Shown one piece after another: positions 3,772-24,989 of a stretch of 24,989 bases of DNA. The notes under the pieces were generated by a model. It did not search any database. It saw nothing but the letters and a program-made list of their open reading frames with translations, and was not told where the DNA came from. Source of the DNA: a virus. Taxonomy: Duplodnaviria; Heunggongvirae; Uroviricota; Caudoviricetes. Location: IMG/VR virus record IMGVR_UViG_2619619133_000007. One strand, given 5' to 3'. The position numbers and the translations under genes are program-made. Positions within the stretch are counted from its first letter, which is position 1, and each line of letters opens with the position of its first letter.

Positions 3772-3809
3772 TCGAGGTAATATAATTTACCTCGACTCGT
3801 TTGTTCTGG
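3772..3809 (+). terminator. Putative intrinsic terminator for the accessory gene
   Basis: Perfect 9-bp stem TCGAGGTAA/TTACCTCGA (3772-3795) followed by CTCGTTTGTTCT. Confidence 0.5.
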
Positions 3810-3947
3810 TATTAATATTTCGCTTTACGACCGATTTTTATCTGATGATATCATGCGGTTTTCATATACTGACTTACTGTCTTTTCTCCGTTAGCGATTT
3901 TCTCCTGCTCAGCGATGATTTTATCTTTGGCTTCTAGTTAATTTCGC

Positions 3948-4169
3948 TCACTTCGAACCTCTCTGTTTACTGATAAGCTCCAGATCCTCCTGGCAACTTG
4001 CACAAGTCCGACAACCCTGAACGACCAGGCGTCTTCGTTCATCTATCGGATCGCCACACTCACAACAATGAGTGGCAGATATAGCCTGGTGGTTCAGGCG
4101 GCGCATTTTTATTGCTGTGTTGCGCTGTAATTCTTCAATTTCTGATGCTGAATCAATGATGTCTGCCAT
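3948..4169 (-). CDS. TraR/DksA-family C4 zinc-finger protein (lambda Orf73-like)
   Basis: 73-aa ORF with CxxC...CxxC motif (CCECGDPIDERRRLVVQGCRTCASC), characteristic of TraR/DksA family. Confidence 0.75.
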   Translation of the reverse strand: MADIIDSASEIEELQRNTAIKMRRLNHQAISATHCCECGDPIDERRRLVVQGCRTCASCQEDLELISKQRGSK

Positions 4170-4267
4170 CTTTCATTAATCCCTGAATTGTTGGTTAATA
4201 CGCTTGAGGGTGAATGCGAATAATAAAAAAGGAGCCTGTAGCTCCATGATGATTTTGTTTTTCATGC

Positions 4268-4453
4268 TCACCGTTCCTTAAAGACGCCGTTTAACATGCC
4301 GATCGCCAGGCTTAAATGAGTCGGTGTGAATCCCATCAGCGTTACCGTTTCGCGGTGCTTCTTCAGTACGCTACGGCAAATGTCATCGACGTTTTTATCC
4401 GGAAACTGCTGTCTGGCTTTTTTGATTTCAGAATTAGCCTGACGGGCAATACT
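4268..4453 (-). CDS. Small early-left protein, lambda orf61-like (start at internal Met MTHQQENAL...)
   Basis: ORF track 4268..4549; conserved lambda-like sequence and 186-nt length from internal ATG. Confidence 0.6.
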   Translation of the reverse strand, partial: SIARQANSEIKKARQQFPDKNVDDICRSVLKKHRETVTLMGFTPTHLSLAIGMLNGVFKER

Positions 4454-4559
4454 GCGAAGGGCGTTTTCTTGCTGATGTGTCATTGAACAAGTCCCATGTC
4501 GGCAAGCATAAGCACACAGAATATGAAGCCCGCTGCCAGAAAAATGCATTCAGTGGTTG

Positions 4560-4751
4560 TCATACCTGGTCTCTCTCATCTGCTTCTGCTTTCGCCACCA
4601 TCATTTCCAGCTTTTGTGAAAGGGATGCGGCTAACGTATGAAATTCTTCGTCTGTTTCTACTGGTATTGGCACAAACCTGACTCCAATTTGAGCGAGGCT
4701 ATGTGCCATCTCAATGCTCGTTCTTAACTCAACAGGAGATGCTTTGTGCAT
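4560..4751 (-). CDS. Small early-left protein, lambda orf63-like
   Basis: 63-aa ORF; position and length match lambda PL-operon ORF between orf61 and orf60a. Confidence 0.6.
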   Translation of the reverse strand: MHKASPVELRTSIEMAHSLAQIGVRFVPIPVETDEEFHTLAASLSQKLEMMVAKAEADERDQV

Positions 4752-4906
4752 ACAGCTCCCCGTTTATTATTTATCTCCTCAGCCAGCCGCTGTGCTTTCA
4801 GGGGATTTCGGGTAACAGAAAGGCCGGGAAATACCCAGCCTCGCTTTGTAACGGAGTAGACGAAAGTGATCGCGCCTACCCGGATATTATCGTGAGGATG
4901 CTTCAT
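4724..4906 (-). CDS. Small early-left protein, lambda orf60a-like
   Basis: ORF 4724..4912; second Met gives the 60-aa lambda-length product overlapping exo stop by 4 nt. Confidence 0.6.
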
Positions 4907-5583
4907 CGCCATTGCTCCCCAAATACAAAACCAATTTCAGCCAGTGCCTCGTCCATTTTTTCGATGAACTCCGGCACCATCTCGTCAAAACTCGCCATGT
5001 ACTTTTCATCCCGCTCAACCACGACATAATGCAGGCCTTCACGCTTCATACGCGGGTCATAGTTGGCAAAGTACCAGGCATCTTTTCGCGTCACCCACAT
5101 GCTGTACTGCACCTGGGCCATGTAAGCCGACTTTATGGCCTCGAAACCACCGAGCCGGAACTTCATGAAATCCCGGGAGGTAAACGGGCATTTCAGCTCA
5201 AGGCCATTGCCGTCACTGCATAAACCATCGGGAGAGCAGGCGGTGCGCATACTTTCGTCGCGATAGATGATCGGGGATTCAATAACATTTACGCCGGAAG
5301 TGAACTCAAACAGGGTTCTGGCGTCGTTCTCGTACTGTTTTCCCCAGGCCAGCGCTTTAGCGTTAACTTCCGGAGCCACACCGGTGCAAACCTCAGCCAG
5401 CAGGGTGTGGAAGTAGGACATTTTCATGTCAGGCCACTTCTTTCCTGATCGGGGCTTTGCTATCACGTTGTGAACTTCTGAAGCGGTGATGACGCCGAGC
5501 CGTAATTTGTGCCATGCATCATCCCCCTGTTCGACAGCTCTCACGTCGATCCCGGTACGCTGCAGGATAATGTCCGGTGTCAT
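4903..5583 (-). CDS. exo: Lambda exonuclease (Red-alpha)
   Basis: 226-aa ORF near-identical to remembered lambda Exo. Confidence 0.95.
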
Positions 5584-6365
5584 GCTGCCACCTTCTGCTC
5601 AGTGGCTTTCTGTTTCAGGAATCCAAGAGCTTTCACTGCTTCGGCCTGTGTCAGTTCTGACGATGCGCGAATGTCGCGGCGAAATATCTGGGAACAGAGC
5701 GGCAATAAGTCGTCATCCCATGTTTTATCCAGGGCGATCAGCAGAGTGTTAATCTCCTGCATGGTTTCATCGTTAACCGGAGTGATGTCGCGTTCTGGCT
5801 GACGTTCTGCAGTGTATGCAGTATTTTCGACAATGCGCTCGGCTTCATCCTTGTCATAGATACCAGCAAATCCGAAGGCCAGACGGGCACACTGAATCAT
5901 GGCTTTATGCCGTAACATCCGTTTGGGATGCGACTGCCACGGCCCCGTGATTTCTCTGCCTTCGCGAGTTTTGAATGGTTCGCGGCGGCATTCATCCATC
6001 CATTCGGTAACGCAGATCGGATGATTACGGTCCTTGCGGTAAATCCGGCATGTACAGGATTCATTGTTCTGCTCAAAGTCCATGCCATCAAACTGCTGGT
6101 TTTCATTGATGATGCGGGACCAGCCATCAACGCCCACCACCGGAACGATGCCGTTCTGCTTATCAGGGAAGGCGTAAATTTCTTTCGTCCACGGATTAAG
6201 GCCGTACTGGTTGGCGACGATCAACAATGCGATGAACTGCGCATCGCTGGCATCACCTTTAAATGCCGTCTGGCGAAGAGTGGTGATCAGTTCCTGTGGG
6301 TCGACAGAATCCATGCCGACACGTTCAGCCAGCTTCCCTGCCAGCGTTGCGAGTGCTGTACTCAT
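5580..6365 (-). CDS. bet: Bet single-strand annealing protein (Red-beta)
   Basis: 261-aa ORF matching lambda Bet ([59 protein letters not shown]...). Confidence 0.95.
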
Positions 6366-6370
6366 CCGTT

Positions 6371-6667
6371 TTATACCTCTGAATCAATATCAACCTGGTG
6401 GTGAGCAATGGTTTCAACCATGTACTGGATGTGTTCTGCCATGCGCTCCTGAAACTCAACATCGTCATCAAACGCACGGGTAATGGCTTTTTTGCTGGCC
6501 CCGTGGCGTTGCAAATGATCGATGCATAGCGATTCAAACAGGTGCTGGGGCAGGCCTTTTTCCATGTCGTCTGCCAGTTCTGCCTCTTTCTCTTCACGGG
6601 CGATCTGCTGGTAGTGACGCGCCCAGCTCTGAGCCTCAAGACGATCCTGAATGTAATAAGCGTTCAT
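6371..6667 (-). CDS. gam: Gam, RecBCD inhibitor (98-aa short form only)
   Basis: Matches lambda GamS; good RBS (AGGAGG); upstream in-frame region has no start codon before a stop, so no long GamL form. Confidence 0.9.
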
Positions 6668-6742
6668 GGCTGACCTCCTGAAAATGGCTGTGAAAATATC
6701 GCCCGCGAAATGCCAGGCTGATTAGGAAAACAGGAAAGGGGA

Positions 6743-7033
6743 TTAGTGATTCAGGCCGTTACCGCGTCCGTCGAGAAAAACTTCCACGAGCAAATCACGG
6801 GTATAAGTGCGCTCGATGCCGCGATGCAGATAAAGCCGTCCGCGTAAATTAGCTGATGCAGTCCAGGTACCATCTTTGTGTTTGACCAGCATTCCTGGCA
6901 TGACCGCACCTCGATTAACGGTCTGCGTTCCATAATGTTGATGAACCATAAAAACTCCTGCCCGTAAGCTGGGCTGCTGAACATATAGAGACTTCTGCGC
7001 GTATTCAGGCGGTGGATGGCCGCCGGTTGTCAT
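6743..7033 (-). CDS. Hypothetical protein at the kil position; possibly Kil/KilR-like host cell-division inhibitor; start uncertain (internal Met at about 6949 possible)
   Basis: 96-aa ORF first downstream of the leftward early promoter; motif [20 protein letters not shown] resembles my recollection of prophage KilR-type proteins; an overlapping alternative frame (6751..6984) cannot be excluded. Confidence 0.4.
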
Positions 7034-7226
7034 AACTAAGCCGCCTCGTTGAAGCGACTAAGGTATGAAATGTTGAGTTAATTTCAGCTGGTCACACCGA
7101 CGTTCACGCGTCCGTTTCACCCCTCGCACTCCCCGAAGCCTGCTGAAATTCAAACTGCGGATCTAAGCGGTCATCGCAACGGTGAATCAGGTAGTTGCCG
7201 TATCGTTGTGTTGTTGCGATGAACTT

Positions 7227-7256
7227 ATTTAAAACTATAGTTGTTTTATCGTCAAC
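7227..7256 (-). promoter_or_regulatory. Putative leftward early promoter (PL-like) with overlapping operator repeats
   Basis: On minus strand -35 TTGACG (plus 7251-7256) and -10 TTAAAT (plus 7227-7232); overlapping AAAACAACTATAG and AACAAC/GTTGTT repeats shared with the rightward promoter region. Confidence 0.5.
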
Positions 7257-7392
7257 AACAAAAGTTGTTTTATTGGTTGTTTTAGATATAACTGGTTGTA
7301 TTTAGGATGGATTTATTTTGTGACTTGAATCGCATAGCGATAACTGAAGCGAGGTTATGGTGGTTTTTTTAACGGTGTGTGTGATGAGGGGA

Positions 7393-7423
7393 GGGCAAAA
7401 GAAAACCCGGCACGGTGACCGGG
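7393..7423 (-). terminator. Putative intrinsic terminator downstream of the repressor gene
   Basis: Stem CCCGG-CACGGTGA-CCGGG with TTTTCTTTT on the minus strand. Confidence 0.5.
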
Positions 7424-7544
7424 ATTCTTACGCCGTTAGGTAAAGATATTATTGCGGTGGCTTAATATTACTACCTAGAGCAAAGATAGGAATTAGTTCT
7501 TTACTGAATGAGCACAATGCCCAGTTGATAATTTTTAATTGGTA

Positions 7545-8234
7545 CTACCCATGCTTCCTATATGTCTGCGGCATGCTCCCAATAACCTTACCGAAGATGA
7601 ACACCCGGTTCATCTCGTCTTTCTCGATCGGGTCCCACGGTGAGTAGCTTTTGTTATCAGAGATGACCAGCAGCTTATCCTTCATCATTTGCAGGCGCTT
7701 TACATGGGCTGTGTCGTCGTACAGAAACGCATAGATACCATCACCGTCGAAAGATTTAACTGTGATATCAACGAACAGTAGATCACCTGGTTCGATCGTT
7801 CCTGACATGCTGTCACCACGCACGTTAATGATGCGGATATTTTCCGCCTTCCTACCATCGAACATGTGACGAGCATCGTCAAACGAGTACTCAACCGAGC
7901 GTAGAACTTCTACAAACTCACGGTTGATGACTCCCGGCCCAGCACTGACTTCTATATCAAGAACGTCAATCTTGAAGTATTTGGAATGGCTGACAGTTGA
8001 TTGTATTGGTTGCACTGTACTGTCTGACATATTTCCAACGCCAGAAGATAACCATTCTGCGCGCACACCCAAAGCGTTCGCGATCTCCACGATTTTAGTT
8101 GTTTGATTAGCTTTCCCTGTTTCGATTTTCTGAATAGCAGCCTGGCTAACCCCGACCAAATCCCCAAGCGCCTTTTGTGTAAGGCCTCGCGCTAATCTGG
8201 CTTCTTTAAGTCTTTCTGAGAGTGTTGTTTTCAT
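7545..8234 (-). CDS. CI-type prophage repressor (N-terminal XRE-type HTH, C-terminal S24 LexA-like peptidase domain); not lambda immunity
   Basis: Start taken at internal Met MKTTLSERLKEARLARGLTQKALGDLVG; Ala-Gly cleavage site and GDSM serine motif typical of RecA-stimulated autocleaving repressors; divergent from the adjacent cro-like gene. Confidence 0.8.
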   Translation of the reverse strand: MKTTLSERLKEARLARGLTQKALGDLVGVSQAAIQKIETGKANQTTKIVEIANALGVRAEWLSSGVGNMSDSTVQPIQSTVSHSKYFKIDVLDIEVSAGPGVINREFVEVLRSVEYSFDDARHMFDGRKAENIRIINVRGDSMSGTIEPGDLLFVDITVKSFDGDGIYAFLYDDTAHVKRLQMMKDKLLVISDNKSYSPWDPIEKDEMNRVFIFGKVIGSMPQTYRKHG

Positions 8235-8275
8235 AGTCCAAATGTACAACCAAGGTTTTATTCCATCAAACGAAA

Positions 8276-8311
8276 ATGGTTGTTGACTAAAAACAACCAT
8301 AGTTTTAATCT
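8276..8311 (+). promoter_or_regulatory. Putative rightward early promoter (PR-like) and operator: inverted repeat ATGGTTGTT-N7-AACAACCAT overlapping -35 TTGACT
   Basis: Perfect 9-bp inverted repeat at 8276-8300; -35 TTGACT at 8283-8288, candidate -10 TAATCT at 8306-8311; cro-like gene starts 8339 with GGAGG RBS. Confidence 0.55.
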
Positions 8312-8338
8312 TGATTCAAATTAACCACGGAGGTTGTT

Positions 8339-8569
8339 ATGAACCCAGCTATCAAAACAGCGATCAATATCGTTGGTTCACAAAAGAAACTGGGCGCTGC
8401 TTGCGAAGTTTCACAGCAGGCCGTCTATAAGTGGCTTCACAACAAAGCAAAGGTATCCCCTGAACATGTCGGCAGCATTGTTACGGCTACTGGTGGAGTA
8501 GTGAAGGCATACCAGATTCGCCCGGATCTTCCGAAGTTGTTTCCACACACCGAAAAGAACGCAGCTTAA
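8339..8569 (+). CDS. Cro-like small HTH regulator (YdaS-like)
   Basis: 76-aa ORF divergent from repressor, strong RBS; HTH-like segment LGAACEVSQQAVYKWL. Confidence 0.7.
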   Translation: MNPAIKTAINIVGSQKKLGAACEVSQQAVYKWLHNKAKVSPEHVGSIVTATGGVVKAYQIRPDLPKLFPHTEKNAA

Positions 8570-8638
8570 ATTTCCATTTCACGCTCTTTAACAATAAGCA
8601 ATCAACTTAACAGTCAATTCAAACTAAAGGAGTCAATT

Positions 8639-9178
8639 ATGCAACCACTTACATACCAACAGACTAGCGGATTTAGCCCGACTGCGGTGATAAATCGTTC
8701 TCAAACAAAACAGGTGCCAGGCCACGAAAAAATCCGTGATGCCGTCCGCGCCTGGTCGGCTGTAGATAATCAGGATGTCGTTGCCACACTCATTGTGAAT
8801 GAGTATCGGGAGCAGGGCGGCGGCACCATCGATTTCCCTGATGATGTCAGCCGTGCACGCCAGAAGCTGTTCCGCTTCCTCGATAACAAATTCGATTCTG
8901 AAAAATACCGAAATAACGTGCGTGAACTGACCCCGGCAATTCTGGCGGTACTACCGCTGGAATATCGCGGTTACCTGGTTGAGCAGGATAGCTTCATGGC
9001 TAGGTTGGCTGAAATGGAAAAGGAACTCAGTGAGGCAAAACAGGCTGTCATTCTCAACGCACCACGCCACCAGAAACTGAAGGAAATTAGTGAAGGTATT
9101 GTGTCGATGTTTCGTGTGGACCCAGATCTGGCTGGTCCATTGATGGCGATGGTTACTACCATGCTGGGGGCGATATGA
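8639..9178 (+). CDS. YdaT-family protein (proposed CII functional analogue in Rac-type immunity regions), putative
   Basis: 179-aa ORF directly after cro-like gene with strong RBS (AAGGAG); segments EYREQGGG and TPAILAVLP resemble what I recall of E. coli YdaT; family assignment from memory only. Confidence 0.45.
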   Translation: MQPLTYQQTSGFSPTAVINRSQTKQVPGHEKIRDAVRAWSAVDNQDVVATLIVNEYREQGGGTIDFPDDVSRARQKLFRFLDNKFDSEKYRNNVRELTPAILAVLPLEYRGYLVEQDSFMARLAEMEKELSEAKQAVILNAPRHQKLKEISEGIVSMFRVDPDLAGPLMAMVTTMLGAI

Positions 9179-9264
9179 CAGGTTCAGAAATGGCGAAAGC
9201 CGGTCTGCTGGAACAGAACCGACTTTCAGGTGCAAATCGTAACACACTCATTGCGGGAGGAATT

Positions 9265-10194
9265 ATGGCAAACACTGCTGAGATATTCAATTTTCCAGTG
9301 CCGGATGCGGCACAAAAGGAGCCGCGCGTGGCAGATCTCGATGATGGTTATACGCGCATTGCAAATGAGTTGCTGGAAGCTGTGATGCTGACCGGATTAA
9401 CACAGCACCAGCTTCTGGTCTTTCTGGCTGTCATGCGCAAAACATATGGCTTTAATAAAAGACTGGATTGGGTGAGCAACGAGCAACTTTCCGAATTGAC
9501 CGGGATATTGCCGCACAAGTGTTCTGCTGCAAAAAGCGTTCTGGTAAAGCGTGGGATTCTTATTCAGAGCGGGCGGAATATCGGCATTAATAATGTGGTC
9601 AGTGAATGGTCAACATTACCCGAATCAGGTAAGAAAAATAAAGTTTACCTGAAAGAGGTAAATTTACCTGAATCAGGTAAGAAAAGTTTACCCAAATCAG
9701 GTAAAGGCGTTTACCCGAATCAGGTAAACACAAAAGACAAACTAACAAAAGACAATATAAAACCTTTTTCGTCCGAGAATTCTGGCGAATCCTCTGACCA
9801 GCCAGAAAACGATCTTCCTGTGGTGAAACCGGATGCTGCAATTCAGAGCGGCAGCAAGTGGGGGACAGCAGAAGACCTGACCGCCGCAGAGTGGATGTTT
9901 GACATGGTGAAGACTATCGCACCATCAGCCAGAAAACCGAATTTTGCTGGGTGGGCTAACGATATCCGCCTGATGCGTGAACGTGACGGACGTAACCACC
10001 GCGACATGTGCGTGCTGTTCCGCTGGGCATGCCAGGACAACTTCTGGTCCGGTAACGTGCTGAGCCCGGCCAAACTCCGCGATAAGTGGACCCAACTCGA
10101 AATCAACCGTAACAAGCAACAGGCAGGCGTGATAGCCAGCAAACCAAAACTCGACCTGACGAACACTGACTGGATTTACGGGGTGGAGCTATGA
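9265..10194 (+). CDS. O: Replication initiator O (lambda O-like; divergent N-terminal DNA-binding domain, lambda-identical C-terminal domain)
   Basis: Start at ATG 9265 with GGGAGG RBS; C-terminal ~110 aa match lambda O (SGSKWGTAEDLTAAEWMFDMVKTIAPSARKPNFAGWANDIRLMRERDG...); contains ori iterons. Confidence 0.9.
   Translation: MANTAEIFNFPVPDAAQKEPRVADLDDGYTRIANELLEAVMLTGLTQHQLLVFLAVMRKTYGFNKRLDWVSNEQLSELTGILPHKCSAAKSVLVKRGILIQSGRNIGINNVVSEWSTLPESGKKNKVYLKEVNLPESGKKSLPKSGKGVYPNQVNTKDKLTKDNIKPFSSENSGESSDQPENDLPVVKPDAAIQSGSKWGTAEDLTAAEWMFDMVKTIAPSARKPNFAGWANDIRLMRERDGRNHRDMCVLFRWACQDNFWSGNVLSPAKLRDKWTQLEINRNKQQAGVIASKPKLDLTNTDWIYGVEL
9616..9728. repeat. Origin iterons inside O: five ~19-bp repeats TTTACC(C/T)(G/A)A(A/T)(T/A)(C/G)AGGTAA(A/G), followed by an AT-rich stretch (9729-9770)
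   Basis: Repeats read directly at 9616-9633, 9644-9662, 9663-9681, 9688-9706, 9710-9728; each is an internal inverted repeat; arrangement is analogous to lambda ori but the sequence differs. Confidence 0.85.
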
Positions 10195-10300
10195 AAAACA
10201 TCGCCGCACAGATGGTTAACTTTGACCGTGAGCAGATGCGTCGGATCGCCAACAACATGCCGGAACAGTACGACGAAAAGCCGCAGGTACAACAGGTACA
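10191..10300 (+). pseudogene. P: Truncated replication gene P (first ~36 codons only)
   Basis: [36 protein letters not shown] matches lambda P N-terminus, start overlaps O stop (ATGA); similarity ends near 10298 and the reading frame terminates shortly after. Confidence 0.85.
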
Positions 10301-10630
10301 GGAAAAGACATCATGCTCGGTAAAACGTATACCAAAGCAGAATGCAAAGCACTCTTGAATAAAGACCTTGCCACTGTCGCCAGACAAATTAACCCGTACA
10401 TCAAAGTCGATATACCGGAAACAACGCGCGGCGCTCTTTACTCATTCGTTTACAACGTGGGTGCTGGCAATTTCAGAACATCGACGCTTCTTCGCAAAAT
10501 AAACCAGGGCGATATCAAAGGCGCATGTGATCAGCTACGTCGCTGGACATATGCTGGCGGTAAGCAATGGAAAGGTCTCATGACTCGTCGTGAGATTGAG
10601 CGTGAAATCTGTTTGTGGGGTCAGCAATGA
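10301..10630 (+). pseudogene. N-terminally truncated phage lysozyme (T4-lysozyme-type endolysin, RrrD-like), C-terminal ~105 aa only
   Basis: ORF 10313..10630 matches the C-terminal part of DLP12-type lysozyme as I remember it; the catalytic N-terminal region is absent because of the P/R deletion junction. Confidence 0.75.
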
Positions 10631-11088
10631 ACAGAGTAACCGCGATTATCTCCGCTCTGGTTATCTGCATCATCGTCTGCCTGTCATGGGCTGTTAATCA
10701 TTACCGTGATAACGCCATTACCTACAAAGCCCAGCGCGACAAAAATGCCAGAGAACTGAAGCTGGCGAACGCGGCAATTACTGACATGCAGATGCGTCAG
10801 CGTGATGTTGCTGCGCTCGATGCAAAATACACGAAGGAGTTAGCTGATGCGAAAGCTGAAAATGATGCTCTGCGTGATGATGTTGCCGCTGGTCGTCGTC
10901 GGTTGCACATCAAAGCAGTCTGTCAGTCAGTGCGTGAAGCCACCACCGCCTCCGGCGTGGATAATGCAGCCTCCCCCCGACTGGCAGACACCGCTGAACG
11001 GGATTATTTCACCCTCAGAGAGAGGCTGATCACTATGCAAAAACAACTGGAAGGAACCCAGAAGTATATTAATGAGCAGTGCAGATAG
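10627..11088 (+). CDS. Rz: Rz inner-membrane spanin (i-spanin)
   Basis: 153-aa ORF from ATG 10627 (overlapping lysozyme stop), N-terminal TM helix, coiled-coil body; matches lambda/DLP12 Rz. Confidence 0.9.
10847..11029 (+). CDS. Rz1: Rz1 outer-membrane lipoprotein spanin (o-spanin), embedded in +1 frame of Rz
   Basis: 60-aa ORF with lipobox LVVVGC and proline-rich region, fully nested within Rz. Confidence 0.9.
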
Positions 11089-11119
11089 AGCTGCCCATAT
11101 CGATGGGCAACTCATGCAA

Positions 11120-11413
11120 TTATTGTGAGCAATACACACGCGCTTCCAGCGGAGTATAAATGCCTAAAGTAATAAAACCGAGAAATCCATTTACGAATGT
11201 TTGCTGGGTTTCTGTTTTAACAACATTTTCTGCGCCGCCACAAATTTGGGCTGCATCAACAGTTTTCTCCTGTCCAATTCCCGAAACGAAGAAATGATGG
11301 GTGATGGTTTCCTTTGGTGTTACTGCTGTCGGTTTGTTTCCAACAGTAAACGTCTGTTGAGCACATCCTGTAATAAGCATTGCCAGAGCGGCAGAAAACA
11401 ACATTTTTTTCAT
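11120..11413 (-). CDS. bor: Bor lipoprotein (serum-resistance-associated lysogenic conversion gene)
   Basis: Start at internal Met MKKMLFSAALAMLITGC (lipobox); 97 aa matching lambda Bor. Confidence 0.9.
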   Translation of the reverse strand: MKKMLFSAALAMLITGCAQQTFTVGNKPTAVTPKETITHHFFVSGIGQEKTVDAAQICGGAENVVKTETQQTFVNGFLGFITLGIYTPLEARVYCSQ

Positions 11414-11774
11414 CTTATTATCCTGCATTGTTAAAAACGGCAGAATCCTATGTGACAACAATTAAACGATAGTTAAATGGATTGATGAAAATTAAAACTA
11501 TATAGGTGGATGCTCAGCCTATTGGAGGAGGGGGGGGCACTCAGAATCCTGTGGAATGAAATAAACCGCTCTTTCTGTCCATTACCCTTTTAGCTGCGCT
11601 GTATCGTCGCCGTATTCCCGCATTAACCATGACCGTAGCCCGACGGGGAATTCCTTCTGCGTGAGTGTGCGGGAATAATCAAAAACGATGCACACCGGGT
11701 TTTACTGTGCTGACAGACGCAGGGTTACCCTCATAGTCGCTTTTCCGGTGCGATGGTGGAAGAAACCGGGATGT

Positions 11775-11969
11775 TTATTCATCATCACTCTGGATTGATG
11801 TATATGCTCTCTTTTCTGACGTTAGTCTCCGACGGCAGGCTTCAATGACCCAGGCTGAGAAATTCCCGGACCCTTTTTGCTCAAGAGCGATGTTAATTTG
11901 TTCAATCATTTGGTTAGGAAAGCGGATGTTGCGGGTTGTTGTTCTGCGGGTTCTGTTCTTCGTTGACAT
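11775..11969 (-). CDS. Small putative ribbon-helix-helix DNA-binding protein (YlcI/DUF3950-like)
   Basis: 64-aa ORF MSTKNRTRRTTTRNIRFPNQMIEQINIALEQKGSGNFSAWVIEACRRRL; family from memory. Confidence 0.55.
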   Translation of the reverse strand: MSTKNRTRRTTTRNIRFPNQMIEQINIALEQKGSGNFSAWVIEACRRRLTSEKRAYTSIQSDDE

Positions 11970-12168
11970 GAGGTTGTCCCGTATTCAGTGTCGCTGATTT
12001 GTATTGTCTGAAGTTGTTTTTACGTTAAGTTGATGCAGATCAATTAATATGATACCTGCGTCATAATTGATTATTTGACGTGGTTTGATGGCGTAGATGC
12101 ACGTTGTGACATGCAGATGATAATTATTATCATTTTGCGGGTCCTTTCCGGCGATCCGACAGGTTACG

Positions 12169-12180
12169 GGGCGGCGACCT
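12169..12180. other. cos: cosN cohesive-end sequence GGGCGGCGACCT (whole cos region about 12100-12360, cosQ upstream, cosB downstream)
   Basis: Sequence identical to the lambda genome termini: ...GGTTACG / GGGCGGCGACCTCGCGGGTTTTCGCTATTTATGAAAATTTTCCGG... Confidence 0.9.
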
Positions 12181-12357
12181 CGCGGGTTTTCGCTATTTAT
12201 GAAAATTTTCCGGTTTAAGGCATTTCCGTTCTTCTTCGTCGTAACTTAATGTTTTTATTTAAAATACCCCCTGAAAAGAAAGGAAACGACAGGTGCTGAA
12301 AACGAGCTTTTGGGCCTCTGTCGTTTCCTTTCTCTGTTTTTGGCCGTGGAATGAACA

Positions 12358-12877
12358 ATGGAAGTCAACAAAAAGCAGCTGGCTGACATTTTCGGTGCGA
12401 GTATCCGTACCATTCAGAACTGGCAGGAACAGGGAATGCCCGTTCTGCGAGGCGGTGGCAAGGGTAATGAGGTGCTTTATGATTCTGCCGCCGTCATAAG
12501 ATGGTATGCCGAAAGGGATGCTGAAATTGAGAACGAAAAGCTGCGCCGGGAAGTTGAAGAACTGCGGCAGGCCAGCGAGACAGATCTCCAGCCAGGGACT
12601 ATTGAGTACGAACGCCATCGACTTACGCGTGCGCAGGCCGACGCACAGGAGCTGAAAAATGCCAGAGACTCCGCTGAAGTGGTGGAAACCGCATTCTGTA
12701 CTTTCGTGCTGTCGCGGATCGCAGGTGAAATTGCCAGTATTCTCGACGGGATCCCCCTGTCGGTGCAGCGGCGTTTTCCGGAACTGGAAAACCGACATGT
12801 TGATTTCCTGAAACGGGATATCATCAAAGCCATGAACAAAGCAGCCGCGCTGGATGAACTGATACCGGGGTTGCTGA

Positions 12878-12903
<26 letters not shown>
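12358..12903 (+). CDS. nu1: Terminase small subunit Nu1
   Basis: 181-aa ORF matching lambda Nu1. Confidence 0.95.
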
Positions 12904-16584
<3,681 letters not shown>

Positions 16585-16604
<20 letters not shown>

Positions 16605-17904
16605 TCTCCCGCATATTGCCAGCATGGCCTTTAATGAGCCGCTGATGCTTGAACCCGCCTATGCGCGGGTTTTCTTTTGTGCGCTTGCAGGCCAGCTTGG
16701 GATCAGCCGCCTGACAGATGCGGTGTCCGGTGACAGCCTGACTGCCCCGGAGGCACCCGCGACGCTGGCGTTATCCGGTGATGATGACGGACCACGACAG
16801 GCCCGCAGTTATCAGGTCATGAACGGCATCGCCGTGCTGCCGGTGTCCGGCACGCTGGTCAGCCGGACGCGAGCGCTGCAGCCGTATTCGGGGATGACCG
16901 GTTACAACGGCATTATCGCCCGTCTGCAACAGGCTGCCAGCGACCCGATGGTGGACGGCATTCTGCTCGATATGGATACGCCAGGCGGGATGGTGGCAGG
17001 GGCATTTGACTGCGCTGACATCATCGCCCGTGTGCGTGACATAAAGCCGGTATGGGCGCTGGCCAATGACATGAACTGCAGTGCAGGGCAGCTGCTTGCC
17101 AGCGCCGCCTCCCGGCGTCTGGTCACGCAGACCGCCCGGACAGGCTCCATCGGCGTCATGATGGCTCACAGTAATTACGGTGCTGCGCTGGAGAAACAGG
17201 GCGTGGAAATCACGCTGATTTACAGCGGCAGCCATAAGGTGGATGGCAACCCCTACAGCCATCTTCCGGATGACGTCCGGGAGACACTGCAGTCCCGGAT
17301 GGATGCAACCCGCCAGATGTTTGCGCAGAAGGTGTCGGCATATACCGGCCTGTCCGTGCAGGCTGTGCTGGATACCGAGGCTGCAGTGTACAGCGGTCAG
17401 GAGGCCATTGATGCCGGACTGGCTGATGAACTTGTCAACAGCACCGATGCGATCACCGTTATGCGTGATGCACTGGATGCACGTAAATCCCGTCTCTCAG
17501 GAGGGCGAATGACCAAAGAGACTCAATCAACAACTGTTTCAGCCACTGCTTCGCAGGCTGACGTTACTGGCGTGGTGCAAGCGACGGAGGGCGAGAACGC
17601 CAGCGCGGCGCAGCCGGACGTGAACGCGCAGATCACCGCAGCGGTTGCGGCAGAAAACAGTCGCATTATGGGGATCCTCAACTGTGAGGAGGCTCACGGA
17701 CGCGAAGAACAGGCTCGCGTGCTGGCCGAAACCCCCGGTATGACCGTGGAAACGGCCCGCCGCATTCTGGCCGCAGCACCACAGAGTGCACAGGCGCGCA
17801 GTGACACTGCGCTGGATCGTCTGATGCAGGGGGCACCGGCACCGCTGGCTGCAGGTAACCCGGCATCTGATGCCGTTAACGATTTGCTGAACACACCAGT
17901 GTAA
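16585..17904 (+). CDS. C: Head maturation protease/scaffold C (GTG start overlapping end of B)
   Basis: 439-aa product from GTG at 16585 matches lambda gpC (MTAELRNLPHIASMAFNEPLMLEPAYARVFF...); the ORF track extends it upstream artefactually. Confidence 0.9.
17299..17904 (+). CDS. nu3: Scaffolding protein Nu3 (in-frame internal start within C)
   Basis: In-frame ATG at 17299 giving the C-terminal 201 codons of C, as in lambda Nu3; start position inferred by analogy. Confidence 0.6.
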   Translation: MDATRQMFAQKVSAYTGLSVQAVLDTEAAVYSGQEAIDAGLADELVNSTDAITVMRDALDARKSRLSGGRMTKETQSTTVSATASQADVTGVVQATEGENASAAQPDVNAQITAAVAAENSRIMGILNCEEAHGREEQARVLAETPGMTVETARRILAAAPQSAQARSDTALDRLMQGAPAPLAAGNPASDAVNDLLNTPV

Positions 17905-17913
17905 GGGATGTTT

Positions 17914-18246
17914 ATGACGAGCAAAGAAACCTTTACCCATTACCAGCCGCTGGGCAACAGTGACCCGGCTCATACCGCAACCGCGCCCGGCGGATTGAGT
18001 AAGAAAACGCCAGCAATGACTCCGTTGATGCCGGATACCTCCACCCGTAAGCTGGTTGCGTGGGATGGCACCACCGACGGTGCTGCCGTTGGCATTCTTG
18101 CTGTTGCTGCTGACCAGACCAGCACCACGCTGACGTTCTACAAGTCCGGCACGTTCCGTTATGAGGATGTGCTCTGGCCGGAGGCTGCCAGCGACGAGGC
18201 GAAAAAACGGACCGCGTTTGCCGGAACGGCAATCAGCATCGTTTAA
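17914..18246 (+). CDS. D: Head decoration protein D
   Basis: 110-aa product from ATG 17914 matches lambda gpD. Confidence 0.95.
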
Positions 18247-18301
18247 CCTGACCCTTCATCACTAAAGGCCGCCTGTGCGGCTTTTTTTACGGGATTTTTT
18301 T

Positions 18302-19327
18302 ATGTCGATGTACACAACCGCCCAGCTGCTGGCGGCAAATGAGCAGAAATTTAAGTTTGATCCGCTGTTTCTGCGTCTCTTTTTCCGTGAGAGCTATCCC
18401 TTCACTACGGAGAAAGTCTATCTCTCACAAATTCCGGGACTGGTAAACATGGCGCTGTACGTTTCGCCGATTGTTTCCGGTGAGGTTATCCGTTCCCGTG
18501 GCGGCTCCACCTCTGAATTTACGCCGGGATATGTCAAACCCAAGCATGAGGTGAATCCGCAGATGACCCTGCGTCGCCTGCCGGATGAAGATCCACAGAA
18601 TCTGGCGGACCCGGCTTACCGCCGCCGTCGCATCATCATGCAGAACATGCGAGACGAAGAGCTGGCCATTGCTCAGGTCGAAGAGATGCAGGCAGTTTCT
18701 GCCGTGCTCAAGGGCAAATACACCATGACCGGTGAAGCCTTCGATCCGGTTGAGGTGGATATGGGCCGCAGTGAAGCGAATAACATCACACAGTCTGGCG
18801 TCACGGAGTGGAGCAAGCGTGACAAGTCCACGTATGACCCGACCGACGATATCGAAGCCTACGCGCTGAACGCCAGCGGCGTGGTGAATATCATCGTGTT
18901 TGACCCGAAAGGCTGGGCGCTGTTCCGTTCCTTCAAAGCCGTCAGGGAGAAGCTGGATACCCGTCGCGGCTCTCATTCCGAACTGGAGACAGCGGTAAAA
19001 GACCTGGGCAAAGCGGTGTCTTATAAGGGAATGTATGGCGATGTGGCCATCGTCGTGTATTCCGGACAGTACGTGGAAAACGGCGTCAAAAAGAACTTCC
19101 TGCCGGACAACACGATGGTGCTGGGTAACACTCATGCACGCGGTCTGCGCACCTATGGCTGTATTCAGGATGCGGATGCATTGAGTGAGGGTATTAATGC
19201 GTCTCCCCGTTATCCGAAAAACTGGAAGACATCCGGCGATCCGGCGCGAGAGTTCACCATGATTCAGTCAGCACCGCTGATGCTGCTGGCTGATCCTGAT
19301 GAGTTCGTGTCCGTTCAACTGGCGTAA
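18302..19327 (+). CDS. E: Major capsid protein E
   Basis: 341-aa product from ATG 18302 matches lambda gpE. Confidence 0.95.
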   Translation: MSMYTTAQLLAANEQKFKFDPLFLRLFFRESYPFTTEKVYLSQIPGLVNMALYVSPIVSGEVIRSRGGSTSEFTPGYVKPKHEVNPQMTLRRLPDEDPQNLADPAYRRRRIIMQNMRDEELAIAQVEEMQAVSAVLKGKYTMTGEAFDPVEVDMGRSEANNITQSGVTEWSKRDKSTYDPTDDIEAYALNASGVVNIIVFDPKGWALFRSFKAVREKLDTRRGSHSELETAVKDLGKAVSYKGMYGDVAIVVYSGQYVENGVKKNFLPDNTMVLGNTHARGLRTYGCIQDADALSEGINASPRYPKNWKTSGDPAREFTMIQSAPLMLLADPDEFVSVQLA

Positions 19328-19368
19328 TCATGGCCCTTCGGGGCCATTTTCTCTCTGTGGAGGAATCC

Positions 19369-19764
19369 ATGACGAAAGATGAACTGATTGCCCGTCTCCG
19401 GTCGCTGGGTGAGCAACTGAACCGTGATGTCAGCCTGACGGGGACGAAAGAAGAACTGGCGCTCCGTGTGGCAGAGCTGGAAGAGGAGCTTGATGACACG
19501 GATGACGCAGCCGGTCTGGACACGTCTGTCAGCCCGGAAAATGCGCTGACCGGACATGAAAATGAGGTGGTATCAGCGCAGACGGATACCGTGACTGATA
19601 CGGCTGCTCTGGTCACGGTTGTGGCACTGGTGACGCTGCATACTGATGCACTTCACGCCACGCGGGATGAGGCTGTGGCATTTGTGCTGCCGGGAACGGC
19701 GTTCCGTGTCTCTGCCGGTGTGGCAACTGAAATGACAGCGCGCGGCCTGGCCAGAATGCAATAA
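19369..19764 (+). CDS. FI: Head completion/DNA packaging protein FI
   Basis: 131-aa product from ATG 19369 with GGAGG RBS; lambda gpFI-like with a divergent central segment. Confidence 0.85.
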   Translation: MTKDELIARLRSLGEQLNRDVSLTGTKEELALRVAELEEELDDTDDAAGLDTSVSPENALTGHENEVVSAQTDTVTDTAALVTVVALVTLHTDALHATRDEAVAFVLPGTAFRVSAGVATEMTARGLARMQ

Positions 19765-19775
19765 CGGGAGGCGCT

Positions 19776-20129
19776 GTGGCTGATTTCGATAACCTGTTCG
19801 ATGCTGCCATTGTCCGCGCCGATGAAACGATACGCGGGTACATGGGAACGTCAGCCACCATGACATCCGGTGAGCAGTCCGGCGCAGTAATACGTGGTGT
19901 TTTTGATGACCCTGAAAATATCAGCTATGCCGGACAGGGCGTGCGCGTTGAAGGCTCCAGCCCGTCCCTGTTTGTCCGGACTGATGATGTGCGGCAGCTG
20001 CGGCGTGGAGACACGCTGACCATCGGTGAGGAAAACTTCTGGATAGACCGGGTTTCGCCGGATGATGGTGGAAGCTGTCATCTCTGGCTTGGGCGGGGCG
20101 TACCGCCTGCCGTTAACCGTCGCCGCTGA
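19776..20129 (+). CDS. FII: Head-tail connector protein FII (GTG start)
   Basis: 117-aa ORF matching lambda gpFII. Confidence 0.9.
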   Translation: MADFDNLFDAAIVRADETIRGYMGTSATMTSGEQSGAVIRGVFDDPENISYAGQGVRVEGSSPSLFVRTDDVRQLRRGDTLTIGEENFWIDRVSPDDGGSCHLWLGRGVPPAVNRRR

Positions 20130-20140
20130 AAGGGGGATGT

Positions 20141-20680
20141 ATGGCCATAAAAGGTCTTGAGCAGGCCATTGAAAACCTCAGCCGTATCAGCAAAACGGCG
20201 GTGCCTGGTGCCGCCGCAATGGCCATTAACCGCGTTGCTTCATCCGCGATATCGCAGTCGGCGTCACAGGTTGCCCGTGAGACAAAGGTACGCCGGAAAC
20301 TGGTAAAGGAAAGGGCCAGGCTGAAAAGGGCCACGGTCAAAAATCCGCAGGCCAGAATCAAAGTTAACCGGGGGGATTTGCCCGTAATCAAGCTGGGTAA
20401 TGCGCGGGTTGTCCTGTCCCGCCGCAGGCGTCGTAAAAAGGGGCAGCGTTCATCCCTGAAAGGTGGCGGCAGCGTGCTTGTGGTGGGTAACCGTCGTATT
20501 CCCGGCGCGTTTATTCAGCAACTGAAAAATGGCCGGTGGCATGTCATGCAGCGTGTGGCCGGGAAAAACCGTTACCCCATTGATGTGGTGAAAATCCCGA
20601 TGGCGGTGCCGCTGACCACGGCGTTTAAACAGAATATTGAACGGATACGGCGTGAACGTCTTCCGAAAGAGCTGGGCTAA
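20141..20680 (+). pseudogene. Z: Tail gene Z, C-terminally truncated (179 aa versus ~192) at a deletion junction
   Basis: Matches lambda gpZ up to ...RERLPKELG, then a stop; downstream sequence is J-derived. Confidence 0.75.
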
Positions 20681-20796
20681 CCGAATCTCATCTCGGCAAG
20701 GAGCTGCTGGAAAAAGTCGATCTGACGGAGGATAACGCCAGCAGACTGGATGAGTTTTCGAAAGAGTGGAAGGACGCTAACGATAAATGGAATGCC

Positions 20797-23328
20797 ATGT
20801 GGGGCGTCAAAATTGAGCAGACCAAAGACGGCAAACATTATGTCGCGGGTATTGGCCTCAGCATGGAGGACACGGAGGAAGGCAAGCTGAGCCAGTTTCT
20901 GGTTGCCGCTAACCGTATCGCGTTTATTGACCCGGCAAACGGGAATGAAACGCCGATGTTTGTGGCGCAGGGCAACCAGATATTCATGAACGACGTGTTC
21001 CTGAAGCGCCTGACGGCCCCCACCATTACCAGCGGTGGCAGTCCTCCGGTATTTTCCCTGACATCAGACGGAAAGCTGACCGCTAAAAATGCGGATATCA
21101 GTGGCAGTGTGAATGCGAACTCAGGAACGCTCAACAATGTCACGATTAACCAGAACTGTACGATTAAGGGCATGCTGGAGGCGACCCAGGTCAGAGGGGA
21201 TTTCGTTAAAGCTGTATCAAAAGCCTTCCCGAAAAAAGTCGGTACGTGGGGTAACACGGAAACACCAAACGGTACGGTTATTGCATCCGCCGTGGCGCTT
21301 GAGGATGCGAGCACGACGAAAAAGGGGATAGTACAGCTCAGCAGTGCGACCAACAGCACTTCCGAGTCACTGGCGGCAACGCCAAAGGCAGTAAAAGCAG
21401 CCTATGACAATGCAGAGAAACGTCTGCAGAAAGACCAGAACGGCGCTGATATACCCGATAAGGTACGCTTCCTGAACAACATTAACGCGGTCAGTAAAAC
21501 AGACTTTGCTGATAAGCGTGGTATGCGTTATGTGCGGGTTAACGCTCCTGCAGGTGCAACATCTGGAAAATATTACCCTGTTGTTGTTATGCGTTCTGCT
21601 GGCTCAGTAAGCGAACTGGCATCAAGGGTCATTATCACCACGGCAACGCGAACCGCAGGCGATCCGATGAATAACTGCGAGTTTAACGGATTTGTTATGC
21701 CTGGTGGCTGGACTGACAGGGGGCGTTATGCTTATGGAATGTTCTGGCAATATCAAAACAATGAACGAGCCATCCACTCAATAATGATGAGTAATAAGGG
21801 CGATGATTTGCGCTCTGTGTTCTATGTTGATGGCGCTGCTTTCCCTGTTTTTGCGTTCATCGAAGATGGCCTGTCAATATCCGCACCTGGTGCTGATCTC
21901 GTTGTTAATGATACGACCTATAAGTTTGGGGCAACAAATCCAGCGACTGAATGTATCGCGGCGGACGTTATCCTTGATTTTAAGAGTGGGCGTGGTTTTT
22001 ATGAGTCCCATTCGTTAATCGTTAACGATAACTTGTCGTGCAAAAAACTTTTTGCCACAGACGAAATTGTAGCGCGTGGTGGTAATCAGATTCGAATGAT
22101 AGGTGGGGAGTATGGTGCATTATGGCGTAATGATGGCGCTAAAACTTACCTGCTGCTTACCAATCAAGGTGATGTTTATGGTGGATGGAATACATTAAGA
22201 CCGTTTGTTATTGATAACGCAACCGGCGAACTGGTTATTGGAACCAAACTGTCTGCAAGTCTGAACGGTAACGCATTGACAGCAACAAAGCTGCAAACGC
22301 CAAGACTGGTTTCTGGTGTTGAGTTTGATGGTTCCAAAGATATTACTTTAACCGCCGCGCATGTGGCTGCTTTTGCCAGAAGGGCAACGGATACATATGC
22401 CGATGCGGATGGTGGCGTTCCCTGGAATGCCGAATCAGGCGCTTACAATGTCACCCGCTCTGGCAACAGCTATATTCTGGTTAACTTCTATACCGGAGTC
22501 GGAAGTTGCCGGACCCTGCAGATGAAGGCGCATTACAGAAATGGTGGTCTGTTCTACCGTTCTTCAAGAGACGGTTATGGTTTTGAGGAAGACTGGGCAG
22601 AAGTTTATACCTCGAAAAATCTTCCACCAGAAAGCTACCCAGTCGGCGCACCAATCCCGTGGCCATCAGATACCGTTCCGTCTGGTTATGCCCTGATGCA
22701 GGGGCAGACTTTTGACAAATCTGCCTACCCGAAACTTGCAGCCGCTTATCCGTCAGGCGTGATCCCTGATATGCGTGGCTGGACGATTAAGGGCAAACCT
22801 GCCAGTGGTCGGGCCGTATTGTCTCAGGAACAGGACGGCATTAAATCGCATACCCACAGCGCCAGCGCATCCAGTACGGATTTGGGGACGAAAACCACAT
22901 CGTCGTTTGATTACGGAACCAAATCCACGAATAACACCGGGGCGCATACCCATAGTATTAGCGGGATCGCAAATAGTGCCGGTGCGCACCAACACAAGAG
23001 TTCCGGTGCATTTGGTGGCACGAACACGAGCATTTTCCCTAATGGTTATACCGCGATTTCAAATCTAAGCGCGGGGATTATGAGCACAACAAGCGGTAGT
23101 GGCCAGACTCGTAATGCAGGGAAGACATCATCAGATGGTGCTCATACCCACTCGCTGTCCGGCACTGCTGCAAGCGCAGGCGCACATGCACATACTGTCG
23201 GTATTGGTGCTCATACGCACTCCGTTGCGATTGGTTCACATGGACACACCATCACCGTTAACGCTGCTGGTAACGCGGAAAACACCGTCAAAAACATCGC
23301 ATTTAACTATATTGTGAGGCTTGCATAA
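20797..23328 (+). CDS. Chimeric tail fibre protein: J (host-specificity protein) C-terminal-region fragment fused in frame to a side-tail-fibre (Stf-like) body with His-rich (HxH) C-terminal domain; open frame extends upstream to 20656 without ATG
   Basis: First ~145 aa match the lambda J region (...[28 protein letters not shown]...NCTI.G.L....GD.VKA.S.AFP); from [39 protein letters not shown] onward it is Stf-like, ending in the lambda Stf C-terminus (...[30 protein letters not shown]). Confidence 0.7.
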
Positions 23329-23909
23329 TGGCATTCAGAATGAGTGAACAACCACGGACCATAAAAATTTATAATCTGCTGGCCGGAACTAATGAATTTA
23401 TTGGTGAAGGTGATGCATATATTCCGCCTCATACAGGTCTGCCAGCAAACAGTACCGATATTGCACCGCCAGATATTCCGGCTGGCTTCGTGGCTGTTTT
23501 CAACAGTGATGAGTCATCGTGGCATCTCGTTGAAGATCATCGGGGTAAAACGGTTTATGACGTGGCTTCCGGCGACGCGTTATTTATTTCTGAACTCGGT
23601 CCGTTACCGGAAAATGTTACCTGGTTATCGCCGGAAGGGGAGTTTCAGAAGTGGAACGGCACAGCCTGGGTGAAGGATACGGAAGCAGAAAAACTGTTCC
23701 GGATCCGGGAGGCGGAAGAAACAAAAAACAACCTGATGCAGGTAGCCAGTGAGCATATTGCGCCGCTTCAGGATGCTGCAGATCTGGAAATTGCAACGGA
23801 GGAAGAAATCTCGTTGCTGGAAGCATGGAAAAAGTATCGGGTATTGCTGAACCGTGTTGATACGTCAACTGCACAGGATATTGAATGGCCAGTAGCACCT
23901 ATAGGGTAA
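23328..23909 (+). CDS. tfa: Tail fibre assembly protein Tfa
   Basis: 193-aa ORF overlapping stf stop (TAATG), matches lambda Tfa. Confidence 0.9.
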
Positions 23910-24001
23910 ATTCGTAATGATTACCTAAATACGTTATTCTTTTGTTAAAAAAGTGATTTTTCTATAGGTAGGGAGTATGTTCTTGGATTAAGAATAAAAA
24001 A

Positions 24002-24026
24002 TCGCCATGAAAGAGCTTCATGGCGA
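24002..24026 (-). terminator. Putative intrinsic terminator (minus strand)
   Basis: Perfect 10-bp stem TCGCCATGAA/TTCATGGCGA with 5-nt loop, followed on the minus strand by TTTTTTATTCTT. Confidence 0.55.
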
Positions 24027-24658
24027 ATACATAAACGTACAAAATGTGATGAAAGTAGAGTGGCGTAAGCCACTATATTAAGATATAACAATAGCGAAGA
24101 AAAGTAAATAACATTTTATGGACGTTTAATTGTTAATTATAAAAACTAGAGTGCCCGATATTGTTTATCTTGCTTTAAAATAATGTACTCAAACCAAATT
24201 TTTGAGCTAAAAGCTCAAATAATATAAATGCAATAATAATGTTTAATAAGACAATTAGCTTGCTTTGTATTTTCATTTCGGAATACTGTTAAGTAACTTT
24301 GATGACCCTAACAATAGATCGGAATTTTCTTAGAGTCAATGGTCACTGTTTTTGCTTGCAAAGCAAATGTTTTGGTGGTTATAAGTTGTCTTAATATAGT
24401 CACGCATGCAACTTGTTCCATGCGGAGATTAAAGATTGGAATATAACGCGAAGATGGAATTAAATTACATTTGCAATAATCAATTTATTATTACTCAATA
24501 ATTACCGATATTATTATTGTAAATTAATCATTAGAGTGCAAAAAGAAATGTAACGGCAAAATAAGAGGACGATAGCTGAGAAAAAAGCGTGCTTTCCCAA
24601 TCTGGGGCAAATCACGTCTGAATGACACCTGAAAACAGGTGGTAGCCTCAAGAAGGCT

Positions 24659-24989
24659 GGTGATGCTGCCAACTTACTGATTTAGTGTATGATGGTGTTT
24701 TTGAGGTGCTCCAGTGGCTTCTGTTTCTATCAGCTGTCCCTCCTGTTCAGCTACTGACGGGGTGGTGCGTAACGGCAAAAGCACCGCCGGACATCAGCGC
24801 TATCTCTGCTCTCACTGCCGTAAAACATGGCAACTGCAGTTCACTTACACCGCTTCTCAACCCGGTACGCACCAGAAAATCATTGATATGGCCATGAATG
24901 GCGTTGGATGCCGGGCAACTGCCCGCATTATGGGCGTTGGCCTCAACACGATTTTACGTCACTTAAAAAACTCAGGCCGCAGTCGGTAA
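24659..24989 (+). mobile_element. IS1: IS1 insertion sequence, left ~331 bp (continues beyond window)
   Basis: Terminal inverted repeat GGTGATGCTGCCAACTTACTGAT at 24659 followed by insA. Confidence 0.9.
24714..24989 (+). CDS. insA: IS1 InsA protein
   Basis: 91-aa [54 protein letters not shown]... matching IS1 InsA; stop is the last codon of the window. Confidence 0.95.

Follow-up and report, generated by a model that had tools for sequence, protein, structure and literature searches.

Truncated Z and J tail genes joined at a two-base TA overlap in a lambda-like prophage of Escherichia coli, very probably the scar of an illegitimate deletion

Cryptic lambdoid prophages keep fragments of the phage from which they descend, among them tail-fibre/tfa cassettes, recombination genes and lysis remnants. 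Such grounded or cryptic lambdoid prophages have lost essential blocks by deletion and by insertion of IS elements (compare the review PMC6379469). Short-homology illegitimate recombination in E. coli has been studied with aberrant lambda excision in the Spi- assay (compare PMC3375238, PMC11372144). Here we analyzed a stretch of 24,989 bases, called the window below, which carries a prophage that resembles Rac, DLP12, Qin and e14 of E. coli K-12 and other grounded prophages in having lost essential blocks by deletion or IS and in having kept fragments. The prophage is multiply defective, and the loss of its tail is one lesion among at least three deletions. The point at which its tail genes are missing is very probably the scar of a microhomology-mediated (illegitimate) deletion in a decaying lambda-like prophage at att-lambda.

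The window coincides exactly with the final 24,989 bases of contig JNMH01000016.1 (GCA_000700245.1), and the prophage in it lies at E. coli att-lambda and is collinear with lambda (BLASTN against lambda J02459). Its first 1,330 bases belong to E. coli ybhC and show 100% identity to many strains, and the att core that stands between ybhC and int is the sole copy in the window and corresponds to lambda 27724. It is followed by int, xis, exo-bet-gam-kil, a non-lambda immunity region, the end of O, the start of P, Rz and cos (BLASTN). In the immunity region Pfam and PHROG scans detected a cI-like repressor together with cro-like and cII-like genes of the YdaS/YdaT type. Window 12169-20679 aligns to lambda 1-8515 at 97.8% (BLASTN), and a tblastn search with every lambda late protein found Nu1 through FII full length at 86-100% identity, the head proteins being 94-100% identical to lambda with the exception of FI at 86%. 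Between tfa and IS1 there are 750 bp of AT-rich DNA; the IS1 end at 24659 is the only one in the window, and the b region and attR of the prophage fall outside it. The positions of all features are collected in Table 1.

Table 1. Features of the prophage and its joints in the window, with the basis of each assignment. A slash in a sequence marks the breakpoint.
Feature	Positions	Strand	Basis or remark
attL core GCTTTTTTATACTAA, left prophage end beside ybhC	1331-1345	+	exact lambda att core match
P', first 36 codons of replication gene P, ends at joint 3	10191-10298	+	tblastn residues 1-36, 100%
Joint 3 (P'::'R), 2-bp TA overlap	10297-10298	.	three-way alignment against lambda P and Lambda_2E9 lysozyme
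'R, lysozyme codons 56-165	10299-10630	+	99.8% identical to Lambda_2E9 lysozyme
cos	12168/12169		BLASTN, alignment to lambda from position 1
Packaging and head genes Nu1, A, W, B, C/Nu3, D, E, FI, FII, complete, lambda-type	12358-20129	+	tblastn, BLASTN
Z', tail-completion gene Z cut to 179 aa, joint-made stop	20141-20680	+	translation, three-way alignment, Pfam, tblastn
Joint 1 (Z'::'J), 2-bp TA overlap	20678-20679	.	lambda 8516-17968 missing
'J', internal fragment of tail-tip gene J, codons 823-1022 of about 1137	20680-21280	+	out of frame with Z
J'-Stf fusion-frame ORF, 843 aa from first start codon	20797-23328	+	frame translation
Joint 2 (J'::'Stf), 2-bp TA overlap, in frame	21279-21280	.	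three-way alignment, CGGTTA/TTGCATCC
'Stf, distal side tail fibre, codon about 452 to end	21281-23328	+	98.8% identical to E. coli MS6192 stf
tfa, tail-fibre assembly gene, intact	23328-23909	+	Pfam Caudo_TAP; 93.8% identical to lambda Tfa
IS1 left end, runs off the window/contig end	24659-24989	+	exact IS1 terminal repeat at 24659

An earlier note on this DNA, made from its letters, had proposed a deletion junction between a 3'-truncated Z and a 5'-truncated J and had suggested an alignment to lambda across both genes. This alignment was done, and it bears out the junction, locates the breakpoint to the base and brings out a TA microhomology. Joint 1 reads ...GAGCTGGGCTA/ACCGAATC..., and BLASTN switches there from lambda 8515 to lambda 17969, window 20678-21183 being aligned to lambda J 17969-18474 at 92.7%. 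In the three-way alignment the Z homology ends with ...GAGCTGGGCTA and the J homology begins with (A)TAACCGAATC. Past the Z breakpoint lambda goes on with TGCGCTGCAG and the window with ACCGAATCTCATCTCGG, which is J from lambda 17971, the preceding bases of J being ...AAGATA; the TA can be assigned to either parent because the Z and J homologies both include it. All alignments across the region of joint 1 have an E-value of 0, so chance resemblance is excluded, and the in-register identity of the non-parental arm at this joint is about 25%. The parental flanks are unrelated at joints 1, 2 and 3, and all three show a two-base TA overlap with no filler DNA. No IS end or other transposon end, att or other site-specific site, or long repeat was found at joint 1, a repeat scan of 20400-21500 gave short chance-level repeats and nothing structural, and a promoter/terminator scan found no promoter-like sites in 19700-21500.

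The DNA lost at joint 1 amounts to 9,453 bp and comprises the end of Z, all of U, V, G, T, H, M, L, K and I, and J codons 1-821. The translation of Z' ends ...RLPKELG*; it matches residues 1-179 of the 192 aa of lambda Z at 99.4% (tblastn) and covers positions 1-176 of 190 of Pfam Minor_tail_Z. Its stop TAA (20678-20680) is a hybrid, composed of the TA of Z codon 180 (TAT) and the A that is the first base of J codon 823, and the claim of the earlier note that Z ends about 13 codons early is in agreement with this. The same note had described J-derived sequence directly after Z, in another frame and with no start codon until 20797, and we found it so: the J frame is offset from that of Z and open from 20656, and its first ATG, GTG or TTG is the ATG at 20797. 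Window 20678-21280 corresponds to J codons 822-1022 and is 99.0% identical to J of phage mEp460_ev081 (h434/mEp460-type). The description of this piece as the C-terminal part of J holds for its derivation from J and fails for its place in the gene, for the retained piece is internal and the end of J is lost at joint 2. The absence of U, V, G, T, H, M, L, K and I was likewise recovered, as tblastn with the lambda proteins found none of them anywhere in the window. The right end of the window is IS1 at the contig end, downstream of tfa, where tail genes would not be expected.

At joint 2 the parents J ...ACGGTACGGTTA/CAGTC and Stf ...AGAGGATA/TTGCATCC have given ...CGGTTA/TTGCATCC, by which J codon 1022 is fused in frame to side-tail-fibre codon 452 or thereabouts, and J codons 1023-1137, lom and Stf codons 1-451 are missing. 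The receptor-binding end of J (the last about 115 codons, Pfam Ig_GpJ_C, absent from the prophage), lom and the attachment end of the fibre are lost as well. From 21276 on, the window matches MS6192 stf from about codon 452 of 1137 and keeps the distal two thirds of a side tail fibre. The fusion frame carries Pfam Phage_Tail_Tip followed by Phage_fiber_2, Gp34_trimer, Collar and gp37_C, and neither Ig_GpJ_C of J nor phage_tail_N of the fibre N-terminus has a Pfam match in it. Public annotations give this ORF as 678 aa from GTG 21292. No complete E. coli genome spans joint 2.

At joint 3 the lambda P homology stops at window 10298, equivalent to lambda 39689, and P ...CAGGTA/GCGCAG and R ...GGCATA/CAGGAAAAG have given ...CAGGTA/CAGGAAAAG. 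P codon 36 is thereby fused to lysozyme codon 56, with the loss of the greater part of P, of ren and the nin region, of Q, of the late promoter and terminator, and of the holin and lysozyme codons 1-55; Q, S and ren were not found by tblastn, and lom likewise. The lysozyme remnant covers only positions 32-125 of the Pfam Phage_lysozyme profile, and an internal ATG at 10313 gives a 105-aa ORF. A scan of 7000-12500 for promoters and terminators was unremarkable, with one weak terminator-like site between Rz and Nu1. Joint 3 is present in no phage record and in 0 of 5,426 complete E. coli genomes.

Measured against viable relatives, essential genes are missing: U to I, Q and S are absent, and P, R, Z and J are truncated; the head genes, tfa and the distal part of the tail fibre are still intact. 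The prophage thus lacks a replication gene, Q and the late promoter, the holin, the tail-shaft and tail-tip genes, the receptor-binding end of J and lom. We regard this as ordinary prophage decay by microhomology joining. In the case of joint 1, the point after Z codon 179 and a point inside J codon 822 would have been joined via the shared TA, which would have removed about 9.45 kb with the 3' end of Z, the genes U to I and the first 821 codons of J. The joint very probably has no function of its own. It ends Z 13 codons early and leaves a J fragment which has no start, is out of frame and has no promoter-like site nearby. P'::'R and J'::'Stf are further TA joints of this prophage. A double-strand break with end joining, or template switching, may have acted at these 2-bp overlaps. 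Only the product is visible, and we therefore infer the pathway, and likewise the order of events, from it; the 2-bp overlap alone is no proof of microhomology-directed joining, its random expectation being about 10%.

The distribution of joint 1 was surveyed in assemblies, phage records and complete genomes. An identical copy of it is present in each of three draft assemblies (GCA_000700245.1, GCA_000700425.1 and the Logan assembly of SRR1186636), which are 99.99-100% identical to the window and may represent one clone. Both sides of the joint are covered in 0 of the 178 phage records that match 20100-21300, and the joint is present in none of the 5,426 complete E. coli genomes. The earlier note had named a natural gene order in a related phage, with tail-shaft genes elsewhere in the prophage, as evidence that would speak against a deletion; no phage record has the order of the window, and the relative E. 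coli STEC409 has the full tail set. The prophage of STEC409 carries a full Z(192 aa)-U-V-G-T-H-M-L-K-I-J-lom-stf-tfa array, together with the same right end of tfa, AT-rich spacer and IS1 as the window at 99% identity, and the tfa-IS1 arrangement is found in 91 complete genomes. Exact matches to the pattern AAAGAGCTGGGCTAACCG in a one-genome-per-species set (5) and in metagenome contigs (7) were set aside as chance, since they come from unrelated organisms and have unrelated flanks. No description of this prophage or joint was found in the literature, and to our knowledge the specific joint has not been described before, although it is a new instance of a well-known kind.

A sister joint, ...GAGCTGGGCTA/ACCGCCAGTATC..., is present in E. 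coli VE-V10-F (NZ_AP027971.1), a closed complete chromosome and the only complete genome that matches both halves of the query. The two joint types have in common the identical Z breakpoint, the first four bases after it (GGGCTA/ACCG), a Z' of 179 aa and a J fragment with no start, but in the sister type J resumes 147 bp upstream, at lambda 17824. The sister type also differs in chromosomal site, Z haplotype and J allele, keeps the intact J end, lom and a full stf, and has an A'::'C deletion in addition. It was found in VE-V10-F, 8 further assemblies and 1 IMG/VR contig, mostly in a DLP12-type remnant beside ompT/envY with the A'::'C deletion. Among contig records of the exact Z' protein the sister type has 29 and the window type 3, about ten times fewer, but some of those contigs simply end at the breakpoint and fit either type. 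Contigs L011, L012, L034 and L035, which encode the same 179 residues and end there, were therefore counted with neither joint type. An exact-pattern scan of viral contigs gave one copy of each type.

The relation between the two types can be followed in the bases next to the joint. In the sister joint the base after TA is A, and the intact J copies in viral contigs have G at this place in at least 120 cases and A in 1. (BLAST hits that begin at query base 1 do not show the A of TAACCG to be common among intact J alleles; H130, one such hit, has G.) This A makes a perfect TAACCG at the sister joint, which is repeated 147 bp downstream, and deletion between the two copies gives exactly the sequence of the window. 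Joint 1 may thus have arisen in two steps, the sister joint first and then slippage between the TAACCG copies. The two types show 7 differences over 530 nt of Z, the nearest at 47 nt from the joint, each being nearer to another intact Z haplotype, and their J alleles diverge beyond about 40 nt, so that common descent would need recombination very near the joint. Among intact Z alleles all four combinations of the two nearest polymorphisms are present, and this fine-scale mosaicism weakens the haplotype argument against common descent. From these comparisons derivation of the window joint from the sister joint by slippage appears somewhat better than an even chance, and independent breakage at the same Z base takes the smaller share.

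Independent origin of the joint types would be expected if breakage recurred at a hotspot, or if a sequence-preferring nuclease, topoisomerase or transposase-like activity cut after (GG)NTA. The left arms of the three window joints are GGGCTA, CGGTTA and CAGGTA, and the overlap is exactly TA at all three and at the sister joint; moreover, two different Z haplotypes are broken at one and the same Z base. In a simulation of random breakpoint pairs in lambda, a 2-bp overlap arose in 10.5% of pairs, TA was the rarest of the sixteen 2-bp overlaps (3% of them), and three overlaps of 2 bp would all fall on a single dinucleotide with a chance of 0.005. The A'::'C joint of VE-V10-F also has a left arm ending in GGTTA, but it overlaps by one base only. 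Against this reading, three to five joints were sampled and the pattern was noticed afterwards, for which reason the TA overlap is a lead and not a finding, and descent accounts for the rare A at the sister joint better than independent events do. We know of no description of a uniform TA overlap as a feature of the short-homology joining pathway. No known E. coli activity with such specificity was found, and the Rpn nucleases, which promote RecA-independent joining, do so without sequence specificity (PMC5350276). We therefore consider a hotspot or a sequence-preferring activity unlikely. It is more doubtful still that the three TA joints and the shared Z base are together the footprint of a specific break-and-rejoin activity which prunes lambda-like prophages at GGNTA-like sites; if true, such an activity would be a directed route to prophage inactivation.

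A prophage with head genes and no tail could also be a functional element that builds its own capsids, takes tails from a helper phage and has its head genes set behind the early rightward promoter by the P-to-R deletion. Nu1 through FII at full length, the presence of cos, int/xis, repressor and O, and the removal of the late terminator region by P'::'R, with one weak terminator-like site left between Rz and Nu1, are in its favour. Its genes, however, are the lambda genes of the phage itself at the identities given above, with no capsid lineage distinct from those of helper phages and no distinct satellite lineage, and its early region is of the lambda/Rac type (int, xis, exo, bet, gam, kil, cI-like, cro-like, cII-like, O), with no integrase-AlpA-primase module of a satellite. 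It lacks P, Q, the late promoter and the holin, the Z', 'J' and 'Stf leftovers look like debris and not like design, the right end is cut by IS1 with no attR in view, the length of about 23 kb falls short of what single-unit lambda packaging needs by the established limits of cos packaging, and the joint is confined to three near-identical assemblies. On these grounds the reading as a capsid-forming satellite was rejected, and a functional tail-less element is highly improbable. Least probable of all is that the contig falsely joins Z and J reads of two prophages: most E. coli genomes have more than one copy of J and Z sequences (a median of 2 places) and the contigs L011, L012, L034 and L035 end exactly at this point, but the recurrence of the identical joint in three separately assembled data sets makes an artefact less likely, a 2-bp overlap cannot drive an assembler join, and the sister joint is found within a complete chromosome that has been closed.

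With the deletion scar as the preferred reading, the data are of use mainly for annotation. What public records call a 179-aa 'phage tail protein' and a 678/843-aa 'tail fibre' are products of truncated genes, and the prophage is to be labelled defective, with no tail, no Q, no holin and no P. With three joints resolved to the base and a sister allele, it is also a clear case of a prophage that decays step by step. The joint makes no open question newly testable; the uniform TA overlap deserves a place in a wider survey of deletion joints in prophages.

Among known systems, the resemblance to capsid-forming PICIs, the tail-less satellites, is superficial only. Capsid and packaging genes are present and tail genes absent in both, but here they are the phage's own genes with truncation debris, and the prophage has neither a late promoter nor a module for replication or regulation of the satellite kind. 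The product at joint 1 is compatible with short-homology illegitimate recombination or end joining of the RecA-independent sort known in E. coli. A few-base overlap and the loss of the intervening DNA are shared with short-homology illegitimate recombination and alternative end joining in E. coli, whereas the window displays the product only. Compared with Rac, DLP12, Qin and e14, the prophage of the window stands at att-lambda, has a complete lambda-identical head and packaging module, and carries three deletion joints whose positions comparison with living relatives gives to the base.

An exact TA overlap was found at all three deletion joints of the prophage (window 10297-10298, 20678-20679 and 21279-21280), the left arms of which terminate in GGGCTA, CGGTTA and CAGGTA. 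Of the 2-bp overlaps at random lambda breakpoints, TA has the lowest likelihood, and the probability that one dinucleotide is common to three 2-bp overlaps was calculated, post hoc, as 0.005. The features are listed in the table along with their positions.

Positions of the deletion joints, fusion, immunity genes and right-end features
Feature	Location	Details
cI-like repressor	in window 6743-9178	251 aa; S24 peptidase domain
YdaS-type (cro-like) and YdaT-type (cII-like) genes	in window 6743-9178	
P'::'R deletion joint	window 10191-10630	out-of-frame fusion of P codon 36 with lysozyme codon 56
J::Stf fusion	window 21279-23328	J codon 1022 joined to Stf codon ~452, in frame
AT-rich DNA	window, 3' of tfa (within 23910-24989)	750 bp, without lambda homology
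IS1	window 24659 to contig end	
Sister Z'::'J joint	L002 (E. coli VE-V10-F, NZ_AP027971.1) 12187-12350	also in L014 and L026-L033 (eight assemblies and one IMG/VR contig)
A'::'C (terminase::protease) deletion joint	L002 8937-8945	...GTTGGTTA|ACAGCACC, 1-bp overlap

The sister Z'::'J joint, which is commoner than the form carried by the window, has the identical Z breakpoint, whereas its J resumes 147 bp upstream; it mostly lies in another prophage remnant, at a DLP12-type site adjoining ompT/envY, unlike that of the window. In the VE-V10-F remnant A'::'C forms an additional deletion joint, where GGTTA again ends the left arm.

The sequence at the Z'::'J joint of the window, GCTAACCGAATC (20676-20687), recurs 232 bp downstream in J as GCTAACCGTATC (20908-20919). 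The short motif TA(A/G)CCG is thus repeated along this stretch of J: it occurs at lambda 17822, again at 17969, and once more 232 bp downstream of 17969. This recurrence could support further slippage.

The P'::'R deletion has removed ren, nin, Q, the late promoter and terminator and the holin, and the early rightward operon now lies directly upstream of Rz and the head genes. The J::Stf fusion, which public annotation gives as 'phage tail fiber repeat family protein' (678 aa), is without the J receptor-binding domain, lom and the N-terminal attachment domain of the fibre.

The right end of the window shows neither the b region nor attR. Of the complete E. coli genomes, 91 have the same tfa-IS1 arrangement; in STEC409 the arrangement borders a truncated htrE, which suggests a rearrangement mediated by IS1.

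A satellite-like block was also observed upstream of an E'-FI-FII-Z fragment on a contig ending at the Z breakpoint (GCA_031193675.1, JAVIRK010000098.1; 1-8300). It carries a D5_N/Pox_D5 primase, SSB, a lambda-E-like capsid gene (346 aa), a D-like decoration gene (113 aa), AlpA, a Nu1-like gene, a cos-like stretch and an Abi_C gene, and could be a satellite that encodes a capsid and is associated with phages of the lambda type.

The immunity region of the window is not that of lambda; it carries YdaS-type and YdaT-type genes, as Rac-type prophages do, and the interval from kil to the repressor has no evident N-like gene.
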